Shown one piece after another: positions 3,215 to 63,153 of a DNA stretch of 64,000 bases (positions within the stretch are counted from its first letter, which is position 1; each line of letters starts with the position of its first letter). This stretch comes from Escherichia phage KEP3, in sequence record PP047753; one strand, given 5' to 3'. The notes beneath the pieces are model-generated. The model was not told the origin of the DNA and did not search any database. It saw nothing but the letters and a program-made list of their open reading frames with translations. The position numbers were made by a program, and so were the translations under genes.

Positions 3215-4072
3215 TTAGTCTTCTGTATCGAAGTCTTCATCTTCTTCGTCATCTGGGTCTGGCAAGTCTTCATCGTCACCATCATCAGAATCATTTGAAG
3301 GTTTGTGGTCTTTTGCGTCTTCTTCAGTGATTTCACCGTTGTCTTCAACACCGTCAAGACCAAGCATAGCCAGTTCGTCTTCATCCAGTTCAGGTTCGCC
3401 GTTAGCGCCGTTACCACCAGTGTAAGGTACAAGAGTATCAATGATAAACTGTTCCTGAATAGGTTTTGTCAGAACATTGTTCTCAAAAGTGTAGAAGTGA
3501 GTAGAAAGAATCACACTACCAAAAGAACCGTTACCAACTGCAATATCTGGATGAATTACATCATAGTTCTTATCATCTTCATGTTTGTCAGATGCTTGAG
3601 CTTTGATTTTCTTCATCGGCTGTTTAACAGCTACACGCTTACCGTTTACTTCTTCAATCAGCATTACAGGGAATGACTGTTTAGCTGTCCACACAGCACC
3701 ATCTTTATAAGCTGCTGCACGACTTACTTTCAAGATGTAGTAAGTGTCTGCTTCAAATGGTGGTTTGCAACCAAACTTCTCTTCGAAGTCATCTGCATCA
3801 ACTGCTTCAGTAGTAACTTTATCCCAACCTTCTGGGTTTTTCTTAGACTTAGTAAACTCTTTAAATAGTTTATTACCATCTTCTGCCAGAATTGAAACAC
3901 TGTAGTTACAGTCTTTGCCTGGGAATTTCTTGTCAATGGATTTACCTTTTCCCGGACGTGGGGAAGTGTTCAGGTAATAAAACCAGACATCTTTCAGAAG
4001 GTAACGCAGAGTTTGACGTTCAGTACCATTGTACTTCTCTACCGGAGCTTTCATTTTAACAACTTTAGACAT
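3215..4072 (-). CDS. ssDNA-binding protein (tentative)
   Basis: Strongly acidic C-terminal tail (DDGDDEDLPDPDDEEDEDFDTED) typical of phage SSBs; position in replication module. Confidence 0.4.
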   Translation of the reverse strand: MSKVVKMKAPVEKYNGTERQTLRYLLKDVWFYYLNTSPRPGKGKSIDKKFPGKDCNYSVSILAEDGNKLFKEFTKSKKNPEGWDKVTTEAVDADDFEEKFGCKPPFEADTYYILKVSRAAAYKDGAVWTAKQSFPVMLIEEVNGKRVAVKQPMKKIKAQASDKHEDDKNYDVIHPDIAVGNGSFGSVILSTHFYTFENNVLTKPIQEQFIIDTLVPYTGGNGANGEPELDEDELAMLGLDGVEDNGEITEEDAKDHKPSNDSDDGDDEDLPDPDDEEDEDFDTED

Positions 4073-8775: not shown

Positions 8776-8952
8776 GTAAGCCTCTTTTAAGTAACTATTA
8801 AGTTTTAATCTTTTATCTTAACGTATTCTATACGTTATACTTTAAAGCTTTTTAAAAGCTATTAAATAATCTTTTAAGAGTTTTAAAGTATCTGTATAGT
8901 TAAACTGTTAAGTAACCTTTTAAGTAAAAACCCACTTCGCAAAGATTAACAC

Positions 8953-8974
8953 CTTGTCAAGTACATTGTCAACT
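8953..8974. promoter_or_regulatory. CCTTGTCAAGTACATTGTCAAC motif in divergent promoter region
   Basis: Tandem TTGTCAA half-sites; near-identical copy at 51688-51709. Confidence 0.4.
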
Positions 8975-9032
8975 TGCTTTTTATAATTTTTTGCAGTAAT
9001 GTATGAGGTTAATGATTTTAGAGGGAGTAAAA

Positions 9033-11732
9033 ATGGAAAACGTAGATTTTAAAAACTTACATTTAGTTGGTGATACAGAAACTGATGGTTTACTCCTTGA
9101 GTTCACTAAAGTGCACGTAATGGCTTTCGCAGACTATAAATCTGACGATGAAGAGCCACCTGTATGGGTCTTTACAGATGAGCCTATCCTCGGTCACAAA
9201 TACACCAAGTACATCAAGGGTGGTTTGCGTGAAGGTATTGAGTTTGCGTTAAAGGCAAAACGACTTTGCATCCATAATGGTCTGGGTTATGACTGGTGGG
9301 TTTTCAATCACATTGCACCTGATTTATGGAACTTTGATAATCCAAAGTGTAAGCCGTGGAGTAATTTCTTTCAGGATTCTCTTATCCAGTCTCGTGTTCA
9401 GTGGATGGATAGACCAACTCCAAAAGGCTATAAAGGTGCTCATGGCTTGGCTGCATGGGGTGCTCGTGTTGGTGTCCGTAAACCAGAGATTGAACATTGG
9501 GGTGTGTGGAATGCAGAAATCTTCACTCGTGTTGTGGAAGATATCCGTATTAACGCCAAAACTAAACGCGCACTGGATAATGAGTATCTCAAGCTAAAGA
9601 AGTGTGGCATAGACACTTATGAAACCTATATGCGAGCTAAAGAAACATCTTTCTGGATGAGTCAACAAGCTATCAATGGTTGGAAAGCTGATAAAGAACT
9701 TATGGAGTTCCATGTAAAGGAACTTGACAAGTTGACTAATGAGCTTGCTTCAGAAGTTGAACCACATCTTCCTCCAACTATTAAGACCAAAGGTAAAGTT
9801 ACTGGGGAAGAGTTTGCAAAAGCTTGGAATGAGTATGTTGAAACATTCGGTCATGCAGATGGACTGAAGAGAATTACCAAGTACCCTAAGACAAAGTATC
9901 GTCAGCAGGTACGTAACGGTGAGATGCAGACATATGAAATCAAGCCATTTGGTAAGCCAACTACAAAGATTTTTAACATTGAAAAGAGAAATTGCTATAC
10001 ACCAACCAACTCTGTAACTGGTGAAGAGTACAAGGAAGGTTTTGTAGCAATGAAGGATGCTCGTGCAATTTGCAACGAGTTGAATGCAAAGATTGGTAAG
10101 AAATGCAAAGACTGGAAGCCAGTAAAAACAGTTAAGACTGTGAAGTACTATAACAGTCATGTTGTTAACCACTTTGAACTTGAGTCAAGTCGCTACACAG
10201 GATTGATTGATGCACCATATACACCAATTGAGTTTGAAGTTTCTCGTATGACTCAGGTAGCAGTTGTTAAAGACTACTTGAAATCAGTTGGTTGGATTCC
10301 AGATGACTGGAACTACAAGAAAGATTCAGACGGTCGCCCTGTCAAAGTTTGTCGTTTCAAAGACAACAAAAAGATGATTACAAAGCATCCTAAGTGGCAG
10401 GAGATGGTTGAACGGTGTGGGTTGAGTTATGTTGAACACGAAGGTGTCCAGTACATCGAACATAACTGGTCTGTGAAGAAGTACACGGATTTGCTTGAAC
10501 CTTGCTTAATCCGTACTTCACCAAAACTTACTGAATCTTCTTATGATACGATTGAAGGTGAGCTTGGACAGAAGATTGCTAAATACTATACTTTGATGCA
10601 CCGACGCAGAACCATTGAGAACTCAAAGGATGATGAAAAAGGTTGGCTAAACCAGATTCGTCCAGATGGTCGCCTTAGTGCTGGTGCAATGGTATTTGGT
10701 ACTTCAACTGGACGTATGACACAATATGGTATTGTAAACGTACCGTCTGGTGCTGCTGTCTATGGGGAACCAATGAGGGCAGTATGGATTTGTGAAGAAG
10801 GTACTAACGTTGTCTCTGTAGACATGAACTCAGCCCAGCTAGTTCTTCTTTGTAACTTTATGGGTGACAAAGACTTCACCAAAGCGGTAACGCAAGGTAA
10901 AGAAGAGATTGAGTTTATTCGTCAAGAAGATGGACGCTATTACTGCAAACACTTTGATGAGTACCTCAACCCAGAGATTGATAAGTACCTCCGCTATGAC
11001 TCTGAGAATGACCTGTACGTTGTCTATTCAGGGACTGATGCACACACACTGAACAGTATTTACTTTAGCTTGAATGATGAGCAGGATATCTTGACTTGTC
11101 GAGCCACTCAGGATGAGAATCTTCTCCATGAGATTAGTAAGGGTCGTAAAAAAGCTAAGAATGGTATCTATGCACTGCTGTTCGGTGCAGGTGATGAGAA
11201 GTTTGCTAAGACAATTAAAGCTGCAACTACTCAGGAAGGTGCACTGACCAAACAGACTTACTTTATTCGTTTGCCTAAAATTAAGAAGCTGCTGGATGAC
11301 TTGGAAGCTGACTACAAAGCGACTAAAAAGGCACTTGAAGAGGTGTTTGGTAAGACCGCTGCAATCTCTAAAGGGGGATTTGTAAAGGTTGCTGGAGCTT
11401 GGTTGTGGTGTAAATCTCCACACAAACTGTTGAACTATCTTTTGATGGGTTCAGAGGCTCAGATTCAAAATGAGGCAATCAACCTTGCTTGTCGTCGTAT
11501 GATTGACGAAGGTTTGATGAAGTTAAATGGTCGTCAACCAGCTATTGGTGCTCGTTTACTCTGTGCATATCACGATGAAACAAGCTGGGAATGTCCAGAA
11601 AGTATGACGGCAGAAGTGAAAGCAGTTACTGACTGGTATTATGGACAAGCTTCTAAGAACTTAGGTCTTAAGAAAGAAACACTTGTAACAGGTACTGGTA
11701 AGGTTGGTAAAAGCTGGCTTGAAGTACACTAA
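9033..11732 (+). CDS. DNA polymerase, family A, with 3'-5' exonuclease domain
   Basis: Exo motif LVGDTETDG; pol motifs SVDMNSAQL, KNGIYALLFGAG, YHDE; start moved to ATG 9033 with GAGGGAG RBS. Confidence 0.85.
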   Translation: MENVDFKNLHLVGDTETDGLLLEFTKVHVMAFADYKSDDEEPPVWVFTDEPILGHKYTKYIKGGLREGIEFALKAKRLCIHNGLGYDWWVFNHIAPDLWNFDNPKCKPWSNFFQDSLIQSRVQWMDRPTPKGYKGAHGLAAWGARVGVRKPEIEHWGVWNAEIFTRVVEDIRINAKTKRALDNEYLKLKKCGIDTYETYMRAKETSFWMSQQAINGWKADKELMEFHVKELDKLTNELASEVEPHLPPTIKTKGKVTGEEFAKAWNEYVETFGHADGLKRITKYPKTKYRQQVRNGEMQTYEIKPFGKPTTKIFNIEKRNCYTPTNSVTGEEYKEGFVAMKDARAICNELNAKIGKKCKDWKPVKTVKTVKYYNSHVVNHFELESSRYTGLIDAPYTPIEFEVSRMTQVAVVKDYLKSVGWIPDDWNYKKDSDGRPVKVCRFKDNKKMITKHPKWQEMVERCGLSYVEHEGVQYIEHNWSVKKYTDLLEPCLIRTSPKLTESSYDTIEGELGQKIAKYYTLMHRRRTIENSKDDEKGWLNQIRPDGRLSAGAMVFGTSTGRMTQYGIVNVPSGAAVYGEPMRAVWICEEGTNVVSVDMNSAQLVLLCNFMGDKDFTKAVTQGKEEIEFIRQEDGRYYCKHFDEYLNPEIDKYLRYDSENDLYVVYSGTDAHTLNSIYFSLNDEQDILTCRATQDENLLHEISKGRKKAKNGIYALLFGAGDEKFAKTIKAATTQEGALTKQTYFIRLPKIKKLLDDLEADYKATKKALEEVFGKTAAISKGGFVKVAGAWLWCKSPHKLLNYLLMGSEAQIQNEAINLACRRMIDEGLMKLNGRQPAIGARLLCAYHDETSWECPESMTAEVKAVTDWYYGQASKNLGLKKETLVTGTGKVGKSWLEVH

Positions 11733-11738
11733 TTAGTA

Positions 11739-11773
11739 TTGACAAGGTACTCATGGAAGAGTACCTTATACAA
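11739..11773 (+). promoter_or_regulatory. TTGACA box followed by perfect 7-bp inverted repeat (GGTACTC/GAGTACC) and TATACA
   Basis: Seen directly; could be promoter/operator or terminator for polymerase gene. Confidence 0.3.
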
Positions 11774-11793
11774 TATCTTATATAGGAGGGCTT

Positions 11794-12003
11794 ATGAGCC
11801 ACCGTGGAAGAACCCATGCAGCAATGATGAAAGGTGCTTCAAAGGAAACTATCAAGAATCGTAAGCAGAAGTTGTTTGAGAGAATAAACAGGTTGATTGA
11901 CAATTCATCTCTTTCAGGTTCTGAGAAGGTTTTCTTGAAAGGTAATCTGAAAAGCATTGCACAAGAACTTGTAGATATTGAATATTGGAGACATCAAAAA
12001 TGA
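11794..12003 (+). CDS. hypothetical protein
   Basis: ORF track; TAGGAGGG RBS. Confidence 0.5.
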   Translation: MSHRGRTHAAMMKGASKETIKNRKQKLFERINRLIDNSSLSGSEKVFLKGNLKSIAQELVDIEYWRHQK

Positions 12004-12218
12004 CACTTGCAGACGTTATTCAGCAACTTCATGATAACTGCTACACTCCAGAGTTAATTCAGGAGATGTCCATTGTAGTCATGCCTAGCAAGTTCGTAAA
12101 AACCTTTAACAACGACGCTTTAAGGTCTACACACATCCTTATCGTTGACGGTAAGATTGCAAAAGACCGTACTGGAGTACTTAAAGGTGAACGTATTGAT
12201 ATTCTGGAGTTGCTATGA
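12000..12218 (+). CDS. hypothetical protein
   Basis: ATG at 12000 with GGAGA RBS and ATGA overlap. Confidence 0.45.
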   Translation: MTLADVIQQLHDNCYTPELIQEMSIVVMPSKFVKTFNNDALRSTHILIVDGKIAKDRTGVLKGERIDILELL

Positions 12219-12360
12219 AGAAAATGTACAGTCTCTGGGGAAGGGTTGGTAAAGGTTTTGACTGGACGCTTCTTCGTTCAAACGTTAAACGTAGTGAATT
12301 ACCAGAACTCATCACTCACTATTTAAAAACATACAGAGAGGTAGACTATCGTGAACAATA
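12215..12360 (+). CDS. small protein (48 aa)
   Basis: ATGA overlap with upstream stop, GGAG RBS; below ORF-track cutoff. Confidence 0.3.
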
Positions 12361-12608
12361 AGGTTAAGAGTTGTGTGAAAGTAATGGTTGCACTTGGAGT
12401 AATTTTTCTATCTGGCTGCAACCCCTCTTATGAAGATAAAAATGCTTCCTACAGCCTCCCACCAGAGATGCAAGATTGCACAGTCTATGAGTTATATGGT
12501 GATACTGTAAGCAGAGATATTGTTGTTGTCAGATGTCCAAACTCTCAAACAACAACATCTTATATCTATGGCAAAAATGGTCAATCACATACCACGGTTA
12601 TTGAGTGA
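12351..12608 (+). CDS. putative lipoprotein
   Basis: Hydrophobic signal sequence ending in lipobox LSGC. Confidence 0.5.
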   Translation: MNNKVKSCVKVMVALGVIFLSGCNPSYEDKNASYSLPPEMQDCTVYELYGDTVSRDIVVVRCPNSQTTTSYIYGKNGQSHTTVIE

Positions 12609-12618
12609 GGTTTTTACG

Positions 12619-12825
12619 ATGGAAGTATTAGTAAACTATATCTATCGTTATGATGTTGTTCACTCCACTACAACTGTAGCTCAACGCAATCCAATAGTCC
12701 CACGAGAAGGTGAGCTTGTTCGCATTGAGGGTTGGACTTACACTGTGGAAAGCATCATCCATAAGTTTGATGTTGCTGGCGATGTTCAAGTTATTGACGT
12801 AGAAATTGGTGGTAAGAGAAAATGA
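12619..12825 (+). CDS. hypothetical protein
   Basis: ATG 12619 with GAGG RBS; ORF-track upstream start overlaps previous gene. Confidence 0.4.
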   Translation: MEVLVNYIYRYDVVHSTTTVAQRNPIVPREGELVRIEGWTYTVESIIHKFDVAGDVQVIDVEIGGKRK

Positions 12826-13040
12826 CTGTAGAAGATAAATTTAAGAACGCAGTTCTTACAGAAGAGGGTGAGCTTGAAACATTCATTCTTCGTGTTGATG
12901 GTAAGCTATTCCGGTGTCGTTGTGGGTCAAACTGTTTCCATAAACCAGATAAAAATGACTTAGAGCTTTACGCATGTAATGCTTGTTACACTTGGTATCA
13001 CTCAGAGGTTAAAAATGACAATTCTGTACAAACAAAATAA
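12822..13040 (+). CDS. small Cys-rich zinc-ribbon protein
   Basis: CRCGSNC...CNAC cysteine pairs. Confidence 0.45.
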   Translation: MTVEDKFKNAVLTEEGELETFILRVDGKLFRCRCGSNCFHKPDKNDLELYACNACYTWYHSEVKNDNSVQTK

Positions 13041-14115
13041 AGACGGCTCTTTTAACGTCTGGTCATGCGTTGCTGTAGGTGACAAAGTTATTACAACCTA
13101 CGGTAAAGAAAATGGCAAGATGATGTTTGAAGAGTATACAGCAGAACCTAAAAACATCGGTAAAAAGAATGAGCGTAACGCTGAACAGCAAGCTCTTTTT
13201 GAAGTTGCTGCAAAGTATAAAAAGCAGGTTGACCGCAAAGGTTATGCTTACACAAAAGAGTCTGCACAGAATACTGAAAAGGTGGGTGTACAGCTTGCTC
13301 ATGATGCTGCAAAGGTTAGCCATGCAAAGTATTTGATATTCCCTGCTGATGCTCAACCAAAACTTGATGGTGTTCGTTGTAGAATTTCAAGAGATGCTGA
13401 TTTAGTTAGCTTCACGGCTTATTCTCGTGAGAATACTGTTTACAACGTCCCAGAAGAACTAATCCCAGATTTGCTTTTGTTGCTTAAATTGCATCCACAA
13501 GTCGAAGACTTTGATGGTGAGATTTATGCTCATGGTTGGGACTTAGAAGATATTGTGTCTATGATTAAGAATGCTGACAATCCAGACCGACATCTACTCC
13601 AGTTCTACTGGTACGATATCTGTGACAGCACTAAGACGTGGCCTGAGCGTAGAGATATTATTGAGACTTCACCATTGAATGACTTTAGAGACGGCTGTAA
13701 AGTTGTTCCTGTTAAGTCTCGTCGTGTAAATTCTTGGGAAGAGTTTGATGAAGCTCATGATAAGTGGGTTGAAGCTAAGTTTGAAGGTGCAATGTACCGT
13801 TCAATCTCTGAAGACTCCTTCTATGAGTGTTGTCACCGTTCATACTTCTTGATTAAGCACAAGAAGATGCACACTGAAGAGTTTAAAGTGACTGGTGTAA
13901 AGACTGATAAGCGTGGTCATGGCAAGTTCGTTGTAGAGACTCTTCCTAACGTCTTTGTAGATGTCTCATGGAAGACTACTCATGAGAAGAAACAGTATCT
14001 TGCTGAACATCCTGAAGAGTTTATCGGCAAACCTTTGACGGTTCAGTTCCAGAAGATGACTCGTAAAGGTTCTTTACAGTTCCCTGTTGGGTTAGTTATT
14101 CGAGACTACGAATAA
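13015..14115 (+). CDS. ATP-dependent DNA ligase
   Basis: Adenylation motif KLDGVR; size ~366 aa like T7-type ligases; start set to ATG 13015. Confidence 0.7.
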   Translation: MTILYKQNKDGSFNVWSCVAVGDKVITTYGKENGKMMFEEYTAEPKNIGKKNERNAEQQALFEVAAKYKKQVDRKGYAYTKESAQNTEKVGVQLAHDAAKVSHAKYLIFPADAQPKLDGVRCRISRDADLVSFTAYSRENTVYNVPEELIPDLLLLLKLHPQVEDFDGEIYAHGWDLEDIVSMIKNADNPDRHLLQFYWYDICDSTKTWPERRDIIETSPLNDFRDGCKVVPVKSRRVNSWEEFDEAHDKWVEAKFEGAMYRSISEDSFYECCHRSYFLIKHKKMHTEEFKVTGVKTDKRGHGKFVVETLPNVFVDVSWKTTHEKKQYLAEHPEEFIGKPLTVQFQKMTRKGSLQFPVGLVIRDYE

Positions 14116-14122
14116 AAAGCTG

Positions 14123-14150
14123 TTGACATAGAAAATTTGGTGAGTATACT
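14123..14150 (+). promoter_or_regulatory. sigma70-like promoter TTGACA-16nt-TATACT
   Basis: Seen directly; 8-bp inverted repeat GGTGAGTA/TACTCACC (14139-14178) overlaps -10. Confidence 0.5.
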
Positions 14151-14305
14151 GAGCAGCATAAACCAACGGGTACTCACCAGCATCACTTAAGAGTCTTTTA
14201 AAAGGGTTTTTAAGTGATGTCCGGTCGGGTGAGGTAGGGTTAAGTATTGTCCGGTACGGTCGGGTAAAGTACGGTACGGTAAGGCAAAGTAGGGTATGGG
14301 TAGTT

Positions 14306-14331
14306 AGTCTCAGCTACATTAAAATGAGACT
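14306..14331 (+). other. hairpin H1 (stem AGTCTC/GAGACT, loop AGCTACATTAAAAT)
   Basis: Inverted repeat; followed by TTTTT. Confidence 0.6.
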
Positions 14332-14448
14332 TACCTTTTTAAAAGGTCTTTAAAGAGGGTCTTTTAATGAGGTGGGGTCTGGTTTGGTATGGTAATGTGA
14401 GGTATGGGTCAGGTGGGGTGAGGTGTAGTTAGGTCTGGTATGGGTGGA

Positions 14449-14476
14449 TGGTAGTAGCCACGTTAAAAATCTACCA
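14449..14476 (+). other. hairpin H2 (stem TGGTAG/CTACCA, loop TAGCCACGTTAAAAAT)
   Basis: Inverted repeat with loop related to H1. Confidence 0.55.
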
Positions 14477-14533
14477 AGTTTCTAAAGAGTCTTCTGTTGA
14501 GGGTTCTTTACAAACAACTTAACAATAAACTAA

Positions 14534-15139
<606 letters not shown>

Positions 15140-15141
15140 TT

Positions 15142-15582
15142 ATGAATACAAAAGCATTAGCAGCAAAGTTTAGTTACGGTGACACTGTATCACACTCTGA
15201 GATGGATACCTTCTTAGGTATTGTGAAGCCAACTTATCAAGGTGACATTGTTAAGTACGAAGATGAAATGAAGGCTTATGCACTTACACGCCTAAACCGA
15301 CTTGAGAAGTTTATTGAGAAGCTTCTTAAAGAAGAGAAGATTTATCTGGTTGCTTCAATGGGTGTTGGTTATCGTGTGGTTGAACCTAAGCATCAAGCAA
15401 CTATTGCAAAACGTAAAATGTCTGGTAAGATTGGTCGCGCTTTAAAGCAAGCCACTCAAGCGATTGAGAATGTGAACACTATGGCACTTAGCCATCAAGA
15501 ACGCTCACGACTGATTGAACAGCAAAACCATTTAGCTGCTATGAAAGCTAACATTAACAAGCAACGTAGAAAACCTTTCTAA
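15142..15582 (+). CDS. hypothetical protein
   Basis: ORF track. Confidence 0.5.
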   Translation: MNTKALAAKFSYGDTVSHSEMDTFLGIVKPTYQGDIVKYEDEMKAYALTRLNRLEKFIEKLLKEEKIYLVASMGVGYRVVEPKHQATIAKRKMSGKIGRALKQATQAIENVNTMALSHQERSRLIEQQNHLAAMKANINKQRRKPF

Positions 15583-15593
15583 GTTGACTAGGT

Positions 15594-15616
15594 AGCCTCT
15601 TCGGAGGCTCCTTTTT
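15594..15616 (+). terminator. rho-independent terminator (AGCCTC-TTCG-GAGGCT + T5)
   Basis: GC stem, tetraloop, T-run. Confidence 0.6.
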
Positions 15617-15717
15617 AAAAGGTCTTTAAGAGGGTCTTTTAATGAGGTTTGGTATGGTCAGGTATGGTGTGGTGTTGTAAGGTTTGGTGCGGTCAGGTTA
15701 GGCTTGGTATGGGTAGT

Positions 15718-15745
15718 TAATCGGAGCTACATAAAAATCCGATTA
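15718..15745 (+). other. hairpin H3 (stem TAATCGGA/TCCGATTA, loop GCTACATAAAAA)
   Basis: Inverted repeat; loop conserved, stem differs from H1. Confidence 0.6.
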
Positions 15746-15855
15746 CATCACTTAAGAGTCTTCTAAGAGGGTTTTTAAGTGGTGTTTGGTAGGATAGAGT
15801 AAGGTAAGTTAAGGTAGGGTGAGGTCTGGTATGGTAAGGTAATGTATGGGTAGTT

Positions 15856-15881
15856 AGTCTCAGCTACATTAAAATGAGACT
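15856..15881 (+). other. hairpin H4 (identical to H1)
   Basis: Exact repeat of 14306-14331. Confidence 0.6.
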
Positions 15882-15982
15882 TACCTTTTTAAAAGGTCTT
15901 TTAAGAGGGTCTTTTAACAAGGTATTGTATGGTGTAGTTTGGTTAGGTATGGTTAGGTGTGGTAAGGTAAGGTATGGAAGGA

Positions 15983-16010
15983 TGGCAGTAGCCTTATAAA
16001 AAATCTGCCA
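15983..16010 (+). other. hairpin H5 (stem TGGCAG/CTGCCA, loop TAGCCTTATAAAAAAT)
   Basis: Inverted repeat with related loop. Confidence 0.55.
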
Positions 16011-16012
16011 AA

Positions 16013-16057
16013 TAAGCTATAAAATCTGTTGACAAGTCAGGTGTTATAGCTTATTTT
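16013..16057 (+). promoter_or_regulatory. promoter candidate (TTGACA 16029-16034, TATTTT -10) flanked by inverted repeat AAGCTATAA/TTATAGCTT
   Basis: Seen directly; spacer 17. Confidence 0.4.
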
Positions 16058-16101
16058 TATACTCAATGTAATACAAAATTTAATATAACTTTGAGGTCAT
16101 T

Positions 16102-16485
16102 ATGAAAAAGATTTTATTAGCTGCTGCAATGGTTATGGCAATGAATTTACCAGTCAATGCAACAGAACTCCCAAATGTGGACTTATCAGGTGTTTCAGAA
16201 GACACTTGCCAGATTGTTAAAGGTGTTGCGCTATCTAAAGGTGAGTTACTTAAACCAATCTCTGAAGAGTCTTTGACAGAGATGACTGATAAGGTGACTG
16301 ACTACCAGTATCGTGTTCTTGCAGAGTATTTCCTGCAATCTGCAAACATTAAAGAGAAACACCATGACGATATTGATGTACAGGCGATGCTCAATCATCG
16401 CATCCAGTTTAAAGAAGATTTGATGCAAAAAGCTATGTATGGTGTTGAGTATTTCTTAGAAAACAGAAGCTGCACAGGTATTTGA
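16102..16485 (+). CDS. secreted/periplasmic protein (signal peptide)
   Basis: N-terminal MKKILLAAAMVMAMNLPVNA; GAGGT RBS. Confidence 0.5.
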   Translation: MKKILLAAAMVMAMNLPVNATELPNVDLSGVSEDTCQIVKGVALSKGELLKPISEESLTEMTDKVTDYQYRVLAEYFLQSANIKEKHHDDIDVQAMLNHRIQFKEDLMQKAMYGVEYFLENRSCTGI

Positions 16486-32695: not shown

Positions 32696-32715
32696 TGTGA
32701 TTCCTTAATACTTTA

Positions 32716-32752
32716 AAAGAAACAAAAAAGGGGAAGACCTTTTAAAGTCTCC
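32716..32752 (-). terminator. rho-independent terminator after tube gene
   Basis: Minus-sense GGGGAGAC...GTCTTCCCC hairpin followed by TTTTTTGTTTCTTTT. Confidence 0.55.
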
Positions 32753-51558: not shown

Positions 51559-51687
51559 TGGTATGCCTCTTATAAGACCTCTTAAAAGGCTTTTAAGATA
51601 AAAGATAGATATCCAGAAAGATATCTGTTTAAATAGCCTTTTTAGAGGAACCTTTTAAGTTATCTTCTAAGTATTTATAAGCCTACA

Positions 51688-51709
51688 CCTTGTCAAGTAC
51701 TTTGTCAAC
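51688..51709. promoter_or_regulatory. CCTTGTCAAGTACTTTGTCAAC motif, second copy
   Basis: 21 of 22 identical to 8953-8974; also in a divergent intergenic region. Confidence 0.4.
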
Positions 51710-56161: not shown

Positions 56162-56498
56162 GCTCCATGTCACAGTGTACAAAAACTTCTCAGATATTAA
56201 AGAGTCTTTAACCAATAAGCTTGACATGCAACGGAAAAGACTCTTTTTAATGTATGACATTGATAACTACAACCACCCTAGAGAGTTTAACTACAAGGAT
56301 GGTACAAAGGTTGTTGAATTTGAAGATTCTGTAACAGTGTATGTCAAACATGACTTACCAGCAAAGTACATAGGGATGTTAGAGTATTACATATTTAAAC
56401 ATACAGGTATGCGTGGTGAGTCTGTCAAGATATCTTCTATAGAAGTTTTTGAGAAACCTAACACACAACTTAAAAAGTATTTAATGAGGAAACTATAA
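56154..56498 (+). CDS. hypothetical protein
   Basis: ORF track. Confidence 0.45.
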   Translation: MSKLHVTVYKNFSDIKESLTNKLDMQRKRLFLMYDIDNYNHPREFNYKDGTKVVEFEDSVTVYVKHDLPAKYIGMLEYYIFKHTGMRGESVKISSIEVFEKPNTQLKKYLMRKL

Positions 56499-61914: not shown

Positions 61915-61975
61915 TTTGAATCTCCAGTTTAGGATTTTATTTAGTGGGGGAGGTCATCCCCCGTTGATTGACAAT
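61915..61975 (-). promoter_or_regulatory. conserved upstream module copy 2
   Basis: GGGGGAGGTCATCCCCC hairpin, CTGGAGATTCAAA-ATG. Confidence 0.6.
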
Positions 61976-62506
61976 TTACAGACTTTTGATTGTCTCGTCA
62001 ATATCTTTTTCAATTTCTCTTAAAGTTTTTTCTAAGTTCTTGATATTCAGCATTAACCCCTCTCCCAGTGTCTTAGCGTAACCATTTGGGCGATGGTCAT
62101 AAAGCTCGATTTCTTCCACTTCGTAAAGGCTGACATTGAAGCCCCCTACCCCGTAGGCTGTGGATGAAGTGCCTTCCGGTGCTTTGTAGTATTTATTGAG
62201 ATTCTTTAAAGAGCGCTCGTAAGCCATACGATAACCGTTTAACACTGTTTTGGTGCAATCGCGTACACTTTCACACTGTGCCGCATACTTTTCTAAGAAC
62301 AGCGGGAGGAGTTCCGCTACCGCTTGCATGAAGTGACGAACAACGAAAGTAGACATATTACGGCGGTGAATGTAGAAAACACCCGTATCAGATTTAGTGA
62401 TAGTTGCGAAATGTTCACCATTGCAACGGAATTCATAGGTATCTTTTACAGGCTTGGACATTACACGATTTGAACGAATGTAATTGATTGCTTGAAACTT
62501 GTTCAT
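61976..62506 (-). CDS. hypothetical protein
   Basis: ORF track. Confidence 0.5.
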   Translation of the reverse strand: MNKFQAINYIRSNRVMSKPVKDTYEFRCNGEHFATITKSDTGVFYIHRRNMSTFVVRHFMQAVAELLPLFLEKYAAQCESVRDCTKTVLNGYRMAYERSLKNLNKYYKAPEGTSSTAYGVGGFNVSLYEVEEIELYDHRPNGYAKTLGEGLMLNIKNLEKTLREIEKDIDETIKSL

Positions 62507-62575: not shown

Positions 62576-62722
62576 TTTAATTTGTCTTTGCAAGCAATTT
62601 TTTAAGTTTATCTATAAAGAATCTTTTAAGTGAATCCCTTTTAGATAAACCCCCTCGAACAAATGTACTATTGTCAAGGGGTATCGTCAAGTAATTTTTT
62701 AAAGTTTTTTATAAGTTATTGA

Positions 62723-63064: not shown

Positions 63065-63153
63065 TTTTGAATCTCCAGTTTAGGACTTTGTTTAGTGGGG
63101 AAGTTCATTCCTTCCCCGTTGATTGACAATTTACAGATTTTTATCAGGCTTGT
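63065..63153 (-). promoter_or_regulatory. conserved upstream module copy 4
   Basis: Variant hairpin GGGGAAG...CTTCCCC, same flanks. Confidence 0.55.

Follow-up and report, generated by a model that had tools for sequence, protein, structure and literature searches.

Promoter-early stem-loops (PeSLs) were first described in the T4-like phages RB49 and phi1 (PMC2839356) and later in PST/T4 and nt-1/KVP40 (PMC4122927). A PeSL joins a strong sigma-70 promoter to a stem-loop that lies in the interval from the -35 to the -10 box, over either box, or just outside them (PMC2839356; PMC4122927). In RB49 one such stem-loop cut expression of a downstream lacZ gene as a strong terminator would (PMC2839356). 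PeSLs mark sites of cassette exchange, and G-T pairs are drawn in their stems (PMC2839356; PMC4122927). Our full-text search of the literature found PeSLs reported only for T4-like phages. Here we describe a stretch of 64,000 nucleotides from Escherichia phage KEP3 (sequence record PP047753), called the window throughout, in which a number of TTGACA promoters coincide with inverted repeats (IRs), and we conclude that the best classification for them is as PeSL-like composites of promoter and stem-loop, in a phage lineage new to such elements.

The window belongs to a Felixounavirus (Felix O1-like), and the region around the elements is 92-94% identical to Escherichia phages MET-P1-301, AYO145A, Andreotti and others. 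Salmonella typing and biocontrol make wide use of Felix O1-like phages. The Felix O1 genome paper lists a few host-polymerase promoters, and states that the passage of transcription through many terminators, and its timing, are unknown (PMC3185647); the genome announcement of AYO145A predicts 16 such promoters (PMC4472883).

Two of the elements flank a locus of a recently described system, Viral Interference Programmable Repeat (VIPR), which was studied in Escherichia phage SUSP1 and presented in a preprint of June 2026 (bioRxiv 10.64898/2026.04.26.720920). VIPR consists of a RAMP-like phage protein, Vipr, an accessory protein, Vap, and guide vrRNAs; each vrRNA is built of 9-16 alternating GGY/NN units plus a structured tail, and DNA is recognised via the NN bases, with one base skipped (bioRxiv 10.64898/2026.04.26.720920). 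The SUSP1 targets lie in E. coli genomes, and the preprint does not discuss flanking promoter or stem-loop elements (bioRxiv 10.64898/2026.04.26.720920).

Association of inverted repeats with TTGACA promoters

The promoter set took in all perfect TTGACA boxes of the window that are intergenic and have a plausible -10 at 16-18 nt (n = 11). IRs were counted when perfect, with arms of at least 9 bp and loops of 3-30 nt, and the background was the share of 30-bp windows touching such an IR. There are 15 IRs of at least 9 bp in the whole 64 kb, and five of them overlap the core of an intergenic TTGACA promoter. Overlap at 5 of 11 promoters compares with 1.5% of windows genome-wide (binomial P = 3.8e-7) and with 5.4% of non-promoter intergenic windows (binomial P = 1.6e-4). 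Perfect repeats of at least 7 bp are overlapped by 7 of the 11: sites 1-4, P47517, P49581 and P51174. The 16 promoters of AYO145A, annotated by others, served as a set not of our own choosing; IRs of at least 9 bp overlap 3/16 (P = 0.001), of at least 8 bp 4/16 (P = 0.0035) and of at least 7 bp 5/16 (P = 0.049). The rIIA-rIIB promoter of AYO145A, which lies outside the window, is a textbook case: TTGACA-AGGGGCT-tcaa-AGCCCCT-TAGAAT. Such a repeat is missing from 4 of the 11 window promoters and from most of the AYO145A set. The association is real and far from universal, so that the sequence-only reading, in which TTGACA boxes were "consistently" paired with repeats, put the matter too strongly.

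The four TTGACA boxes with perfect IRs on which that reading was built are all present in the sequence, and its description of them as promoter-like is borne out: the sites are of sigma-70 type, and sites 1-3 (P11739, P14123 and P16029) carry the AYO145A promoter annotation "similar to TTGACA(N15-18)TATAAT". Site 1, P11739 (11739..11767, plus strand), follows the DNA polymerase gene, whose stop codon is at 11732. Its -35 TTGACA (11739-11744) is separated by a 17-nt spacer from a weak -10, TACCTT (11762-11767); a better-looking TATACA stands 22 nt from the -35, a distance too great for sigma-70. The IR, AAGGTACTC/GAGTACCTT (11744-11752 and 11759-11767), has 9 bp and a loop of 6. Site 2, P14123 (14123..14179, plus strand), follows the DNA ligase gene (stop 14115) and matches the consensus at 11 of 12 positions, with -35 TTGACA at 14123-14128, a 16-nt spacer and -10 TATACT at 14145-14150; its 9-bp IR, TGGTGAGTA/TACTCACCA (14138-14146 and 14171-14179), has a loop of 24 that contains the -10 and the predicted start site. 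This predicted promoter would fire into vrRNA1 of the VIPR locus. Site 3 (P16029 and its stem-loop, 16010..16063, plus strand) lies at the downstream edge of the VIPR locus, before a small gene starting at 16102. Here -35 TTGACA (16029-16034) and a weak -10, TATTTT (16052-16057), are 17 nt apart, a second TATACT (16058-16063) is 23 nt away, and the 13-bp arms AAATAAGCTATAA/TTATAGCTTATTT (16010-16022 and 16044-16056) bracket the -35. Site 4, P49672 (49644..49680, minus strand), lies after the DUF2828/DUF7788 gene and upstream of a block of 26 tRNAs. It has -35 TTGACA at 49672-49667, a 17-nt spacer and a good -10, TAATAT, at 49649-49644; its 9-bp IR, AAAGGGTAT/ATACCCTTT (49649-49657 and 49672-49680; loop 14), also brackets the -35. 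Stems of 7-9 bp, as first reported, hold for sites 1, 2 and 4 (perfect arms of 9, 9 and 9 bp) and understate site 3 (13 bp); the reported -10 spacing is good at sites 2 and 4, whereas sites 1 and 3 offer only TACCTT and TATTTT at 17 nt.

Three further repeat-bearing promoters lie on the minus strand. P51174 (51139..51174), which the sequence-only reading had not listed, has its -35 at 51174-51169, a -10 TAAAGT at 51150-51145 and 9-bp arms TGACAGACT/AGTCTGTCA (51165-51173 and 51139-51147). P49581 (49548..49581), directly upstream of tRNA-Pro, has its -35 at 49581-49576, a -10 TAAAGT at 49557-49552 and a weak 7-bp stem, AACCACT/AGTGGTT. P47517 (47489..47526), inside the tRNA cluster, has its -35 at 47517-47512, a -10 TATAGT at 47494-47489 and a weak 7-bp stem, ATAAAGT/ACTTTAT, that brackets the -35.

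The elements occupy gaps that run from a gene's stop codon to the ribosome-binding site that follows, except that the tRNA-cluster promoters precede tRNA genes instead. The 45 nt upstream contain 60-78% A+T against 61% for the genome and are clearly A-rich only at 49581, 49672 and 16029. The copies have in common the hexamers and, at some sites, upstream bases resembling AAAGTTGTTGACA and a leader of the form ATAC..ATATAGGAGG; the stems all differ. A leader TATAC(T/A)...ATAC(A)AAAT..TATATAGGAGG is common to several promoters (11767-11790, 16058-16095, and after the ligase gene in the relatives L017, L018 and L021), where it folds as a small hairpin immediately ahead of the ribosome-binding site. 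This common leader suggests that the promoter cassettes are related copies. We also considered TATAC(T/A) as a separate, phage-specific promoter class and rejected it: 13 of its 72 occurrences are intergenic, and no pattern emerges beyond the known sites.

Conservation and covariation of the repeat arms

About 30 relatives were fetched around the ligase gene and the DUF2828 gene. Among them, variable columns number 12 of 118 in the arms, 35 of 101 in the loops and 90 of 263 in the flanks (Fisher P = 9e-8), the arms being three times better conserved than the loops. The arms of site 3 are invariant in 28 relatives, and the inner 7 bp of the site 4 stem are preserved in Mooglevirus Silverhawkium. 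The left arms lie outside the hexamers, unlike the right arms, which touch the -10. The repeats are non-random and under purifying selection.

The position of site 2 is the most informative. Three relatives that have no downstream cassette there (L017, L018 and L021) keep TTGACA, the 16-nt spacer and TATACT, and each has a perfect IR: AAACATAGCAAGT/ACTTGCTATGTTT in L017, TAGTGGGT/ACCCACTA in L018 and CCTGACGGGT/ACCCGTCAGG in L021. The four arm sequences at this position, those three and TGGTGAGTA of the window, are unrelated to each other, and in all four genomes the first T of TATACT is the last base of the left arm. Pairing has been maintained while the sequence changed, and this is the strongest evidence for a function.

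These data bear directly on whether the repeats have any regulatory role, since they might instead be by-products or substrates of recombination at promoter cassettes, or reflect chance complementarity between A+T-rich upstream and -10 regions. The homology breakpoints of the relatives do cluster at promoter edges (see below), and the two weakest repeats, of 7 bp, are within chance expectation for intergenic DNA. Chance also accounts for an 11-bp repeat at 56199-56246 around the TTGACA at 56221, which is unconserved coding sequence: relatives differ there at third codon positions, conservation does not extend to the TTGACA, and the repeat is gone from distant relatives, which is why we rejected it as an element. 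Against a general absence of function stand the threefold better conservation of arms over loops, the pairing kept with different sequences, and the enrichment of repeats over other intergenic DNA, and we consider that explanation unlikely.

Strand asymmetry and the folding molecule

All eight transition polymorphisms in the arms produce G.T on the transcribed strand and A.C on the other (8/8; binomial P = 0.004); at P51174, for instance, the A/G and C/T arm variants of the relatives still pair as G.U. Mismatches tolerated as G.T on the transcribed strand only fit an RNA hairpin, and fit neither a cruciform, in which both strands are paired, nor a double-stranded operator. Across the relatives, sense-strand RNA is more stable than antisense RNA at 5 of 7 sites. 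Compared with shuffled sequence, the predicted RNA folds reach -16.3 kcal/mol (z -4.2) at site 1, -17.8 kcal/mol (z -3.6) at site 3, -17.0 kcal/mol (z -3.0) at P51174 and -12.6 kcal/mol (z -2.4) at site 4; P49581 (z -1.3) is not significant, and P47517 has z -1.5.

The position of the arms also points to the RNA that would fold. Whichever the site, the left arm or more of the repeat precedes the predicted start site, and only RNA begun at a promoter further upstream can form the hairpin. The genomic context agrees: a gene or transcript running in the same direction lies upstream of each of the seven promoters with a repeat. Of the four without one, two (8972 and 51708, each with a double TTGACA box) are in divergent gaps, where there is nothing to read through. 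The double -35 box takes the form TTGACAa(t/a)gtacTTGACAaggtgt followed by CTTAAAAGGTT about 45 nt later, at 8960-8972 and 51696-51708 (both minus strand); the same arrangement occurs in the distant Erwinia phage SunLIRen (L067, 16302, plus strand).

If the repeats acted as DNA, they might extrude as cruciforms or make promoter strength dependent on supercoiling. The perfect 9-13-bp arms of this genome would suit such a model, as would the good TATAC(A/T) of sites 1 and 3, which stands at 22-23 nt from the -35, the repeat lying between the two. Loops of 14-32 nt, however, strongly disfavour extrusion, long loops making it improbable. The site 1 repeat, moreover, is perfect only in this genome, as 31 of 31 relatives carry G opposite T at pair 6, a G.T/A.C mismatch in mid-stem, and extruding this 24-nt repeat would remove the whole spacer instead of correcting its length. 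Taken with the strand asymmetry, these points make cruciforms the least probable of the explanations considered, and the earlier suggestion that the promoters are gated by DNA structure is not supported, given the loop lengths and the eight one-sided transitions.

The same suggestion named different regulators as a second possibility, each IR being an operator for a dimeric DNA-binding protein and each promoter controlled separately. The repeats do overlap the -35 or -10, the usual repressor positions, as operator palindromes such as lambda OR/OL and LexA boxes do, and their arms are conserved. Unlike such palindromes, each repeat is different, the arm spacing is variable and long (centre-to-centre distances of 15 to 34 bp), the arms covary, and the variation is strand-asymmetric. 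Seven different sequences would have to be served with only one annotated transcriptional regulator gene nearby, the four unrelated arm pairs at one site among close relatives would each require a co-evolving regulator, and transition variants that give G.T on one strand only are meaningless for a double-stranded operator. Control of this kind is very unlikely, and the proposal of separate regulators was not upheld. DNA-level effects on the promoters are disfavoured in general; the selected, sense-strand character of the hairpins is established here.

RNA hairpins need not be terminators. In read-through transcripts they could be caps that protect 3' ends or processing sites, or they could distinguish read-through from promoter-initiated mRNA, for example through access to a ribosome-binding site just after the right arm. 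The evidence for sense-strand RNA structure applies equally to these roles, U-tracts are lacking, and 3-10 nt separate the end of the right arm from a GGAGG ribosome-binding site in L017, L018 and L021. As processing sites, however, stems of 7-13 bp are too short, since classical RNase III sites need longer ones, and the tested RB49 PeSL stem-loop behaved as a strong terminator in lowering downstream expression (PMC2839356). We regard such non-terminator roles as doubtful, while giving them more weight than an absence of function or any action of the repeats as DNA.

Comparison with PeSLs and other hairpin promoters

The reading that we favour is that the elements are composite promoter/stem-loops of the PeSL kind, with the hairpin acting on transcripts of the upstream gene; we put its probability at roughly 55%. 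Host sigma-70 RNA polymerase would start at the TTGACA/-10 promoters, and the IR around the -35, the spacer or the -10 would encode, on the transcribed strand, a hairpin of RNA. When polymerase comes through from the gene upstream, it would copy both arms, and the hairpin would form while it crosses the promoter, most likely attenuating or ending read-through, or else capping and so protecting the upstream message at its 3' end. Expression of every downstream unit would then depend on a promoter of its own. It is from the RB49 precedent that we infer promoter activity and attenuation; RNA as the folded molecule is likewise the probable, rather than the demonstrated, form.

As a positive control, the identical scan was run on the first 50 kb of RB49. 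It returned the three layouts of the window: a stem in the spacer (TTGACAggggatcggtgatcccctatact), a loop that holds the -10 (ATGGGAGTAgtaaaaTACTCCCAT), and arms on either side of the -35 (ATAGGGGtaTTGACA...CCCCTATaat), the right arm in this last layout running into the -10. Like PeSLs, the window elements have a sigma-70-like promoter between a stop codon and the next ribosome-binding site with -35 and -10 about 17 nt apart, a stem-loop in or next to the promoter (in 7 of 11 window promoters), G-T pairs in the stems, and ties to insertions, deletions and cassette replacement between close relatives. They differ in belonging to the Ounavirinae, whereas RB49 is of the Straboviridae, and in their stems, which are of mixed sequence with loops of 6-32 nt where those of RB49 are Gn-loop-Cn with short loops. 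Terminator activity is demonstrated for an RB49 PeSL; in the window both it and the formation of mini-circles are putative. In SunLIRen, a distant member of the Ounavirinae, several promoters have G+C stems of 5-6 bp around the -10; one of them, the orthologue of P49581 upstream of tRNA-Pro, has a different 5-bp stem there.

Two other kinds of element deserve comparison. In the virion RNA polymerase promoters of phage N4 and in Frpo of conjugative plasmids, a nucleic-acid hairpin likewise stands at a promoter; there the hairpin itself is the promoter and needs a special polymerase or single-stranded DNA, and the N4 hairpins have 5-7-bp stems and 3-nt loops. The window elements, unlike these, have a normal -35/-10 pair and long loops. 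An intrinsic terminator followed by a promoter, as found in phage gaps, resembles them in that a hairpin of the upstream transcript adjoins a restart promoter; it differs in that here the hairpin encloses promoter elements, the loops are long, there is no proper U-tract, and the terminator scan does not call it. Canonical terminators do occur elsewhere in the window, at 15594 and about 55040, and the AYO145A annotation includes one overlapping terminator/promoter pair, at 3499-3549.

Several observations count against a PeSL-like function. Because the right arms extend over -10 elements, constraint on the promoter may explain some of their conservation. Eight events, in related genomes, underlie the G.U test, and 3 of the 7 hairpins are no more stable than shuffled sequence. 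The terminator scan calls none of the hairpins, whose loops are 6-32 nt and whose U-tracts are weak or absent; none is a canonical intrinsic terminator. RB49 PeSLs are near-identical repeats, whereas the window elements are not near-copies of one another, and the window lacks the conserved, recurring motif of about 100 bp that PeSL copies of a genome have in common. Finally, a literature search for a Felix O1 or Felixounavirus transcriptome, start-site map or transcript 5' or 3' ends returned nothing usable.

Should the elements work as in RB49, each short gene block would be an insulated unit with its own host-polymerase promoter. The result would be a concrete, testable map of early transcription, bearing on the question of terminators and timing in Felix O1 (PMC3185647). 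PeSL-type elements would then reach beyond the T4-like phages, which would point to a design common among large lytic phages that depend on host polymerase.

The VIPR locus and cassette exchange

The DNA between sites 2 and 3 (14180..16009, plus strand; 14116-16101 with flanks) is, judged by its GGTNN arrays, protein identity to SUSP1 and a RAMP fold, a complete VIPR locus of type II, the SUSP1 type. Five modules occupy the non-coding stretches 14116-14536 and 15583-16101, each with 11-15 tandem GGTNN units and a conserved hairpin tail: vrRNA1 (about 14221-14335), vrRNA2 (about 14371-14475), vrRNA3 (about 15646-15745), vrRNA4 (about 15788-15890) and vrRNA5 (about 15921-16009), all on the plus strand. 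The tails show compensatory stem changes between copies, and the NN positions differ between phages with identical flanks. On the same strand, vipr (14552-15139) encodes a protein 98% identical to the 195-aa SUSP1 protein whose gene adjoins vrRNA1, and vap (15142-15582) one 99% identical to the 146-aa SUSP1 protein. The AlphaFold model of Vipr has a pLDDT of 95.4, and its top 47 matches in the PDB are all CRISPR RAMP proteins (Csm3/Cas7, Cas6, Cmr).

SUSP1 is one of the relatives compared, and its locus is syntenic with that of the window. It has one vrRNA upstream and three downstream of the genes, unlike the window, which has two upstream and three downstream, with arrays (GGYNN)11-15. In SUSP1 too, and with sequences identical to the window's, the site 2 promoter precedes vrRNA1 and the site 3 stem-loop and promoter follow the last vrRNA. 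Under the PeSL-like reading, P14123 would start the vrRNA/vipr unit, the 13-bp hairpin (16010-16056) followed by UUUUUAUACU (16010-16063 together) would close it, and P16029 would restart transcription. The elements would thus supply a likely native promoter and a likely end signal for the SUSP1-type VIPR operon, both absent from the VIPR preprint.

Other explanations of the GGTNN arrays were rejected: as Chi-like sites, since the window contains no GCTGGTGG; as a known RNA family, since Rfam gave no match; and as a replication origin, the GC skew merely following gene orientation. An IMG/VR target search with vrRNA1 and vrRNA3 found no perfect full-length match.

Sequence similarity between the window and its relatives often ends at sites 1, 2 and 3. 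Homology ends fall at 11711-11739 in 17 loci, at 14105-14121 in 15 and at 16011 in 11, that is, at the upstream edges of sites 1 and 2 and at the first base of the site 3 stem. In many relatives (for example L002, 1233-1745) a gene for a homing endonuclease separates the DNA polymerase gene from the site 1 promoter; the window lacks it (11733-11738), and similarity to these relatives resumes at the site 1 TTGACA. At P47517 the flanks come in three upstream and two downstream kinds, which the relatives combine in different ways. The breakpoints lend modest support to cassette exchange, and only modest because gene boundaries in general collect breakpoints.

The distance between the site 2 and site 3 promoters varies among relatives with their contents, from about 175 nt (one vrRNA) and about 320 nt (two) to 1,600-1,900 nt (full locus), and falls to zero, so that 0 to 5 vrRNAs lie between the two flanking promoters. 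Three genomes without VIPR have a single, hybrid-looking promoter whose upstream half is like site 2 and whose leader is like site 3. Since the same two promoters flank five vrRNAs and two genes, two vrRNAs, one, or nothing, it is possible, and we suggest it tentatively, that the stem-loop promoters are joints at which VIPR modules are inserted, trimmed and lost in the Ounavirinae, insulating the expression of the guide RNAs from that of the adjacent replication genes, and that PeSL-like cassettes are a vehicle that spreads VIPR between phages. Such joints would offer a possible mechanism for the presence or absence of VIPR among close relatives.

Modules similar to the vrRNA arrays occur in unrelated viral contigs. 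Tandem NNGGT modules of about 11-13 units were seen in L077 (4500-5150, minus strand), L087 (2200-3150, plus strand) and L072 (1-330, plus strand), with short conserved delimiters between them (AAGGCTAATGG; AAGGTAAGGAATGGTTTAATGAATTTAAT; AGGGCAAGGCAGGT), and presumably belong to vrRNAs of VIPR types other than this one. Exact matching of seven consecutive NNGGT units gave at least 120 stretches. Within the window, a motif TTAA(A/G)AG(G/A), with complement (T/C)CTT(T/C)TAA, has 32 of its 60 occurrences in gaps, which make up about 10% of the sequence. It clusters at 8776-9002, 14190-14370, 15610-15920, 32710-32750, 51570-51665 and 62600-62650, and often appears as a tandem pair, such as AAGGTCTTTAAGAGGGTCTTTTAA, before each vrRNA.

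Other features of the window

Domains DUF2828 and DUF7788 are both present in the 471-aa product of the gene at 49691-51106 (minus strand), directly upstream of the cluster of 26 tRNAs. The annotation reads "RNA-binding protein" in phage BPS17L1 and vWA-containing in Silverhawkium, and our guess is that the protein might have a Ro60-like role. Between 59682 and 61336 lies 1.65 kb without a long open reading frame, in which repeats phased at about 10-11 bp (CTTGTTAG / CTGTTAAG / TTAAGAGG) look like an array of putative protein-binding sites, such as an origin, a packaging site or a genome end. Two copies of CCCCGTTGATTGACAATTTACAGA(C/T)TTTT, at 61940-61990 and 63095-63145 (plus strand), adjoin G+C-rich hairpins between minus-strand genes and partly resemble the 57-bp direct repeats reported for Felix O1.

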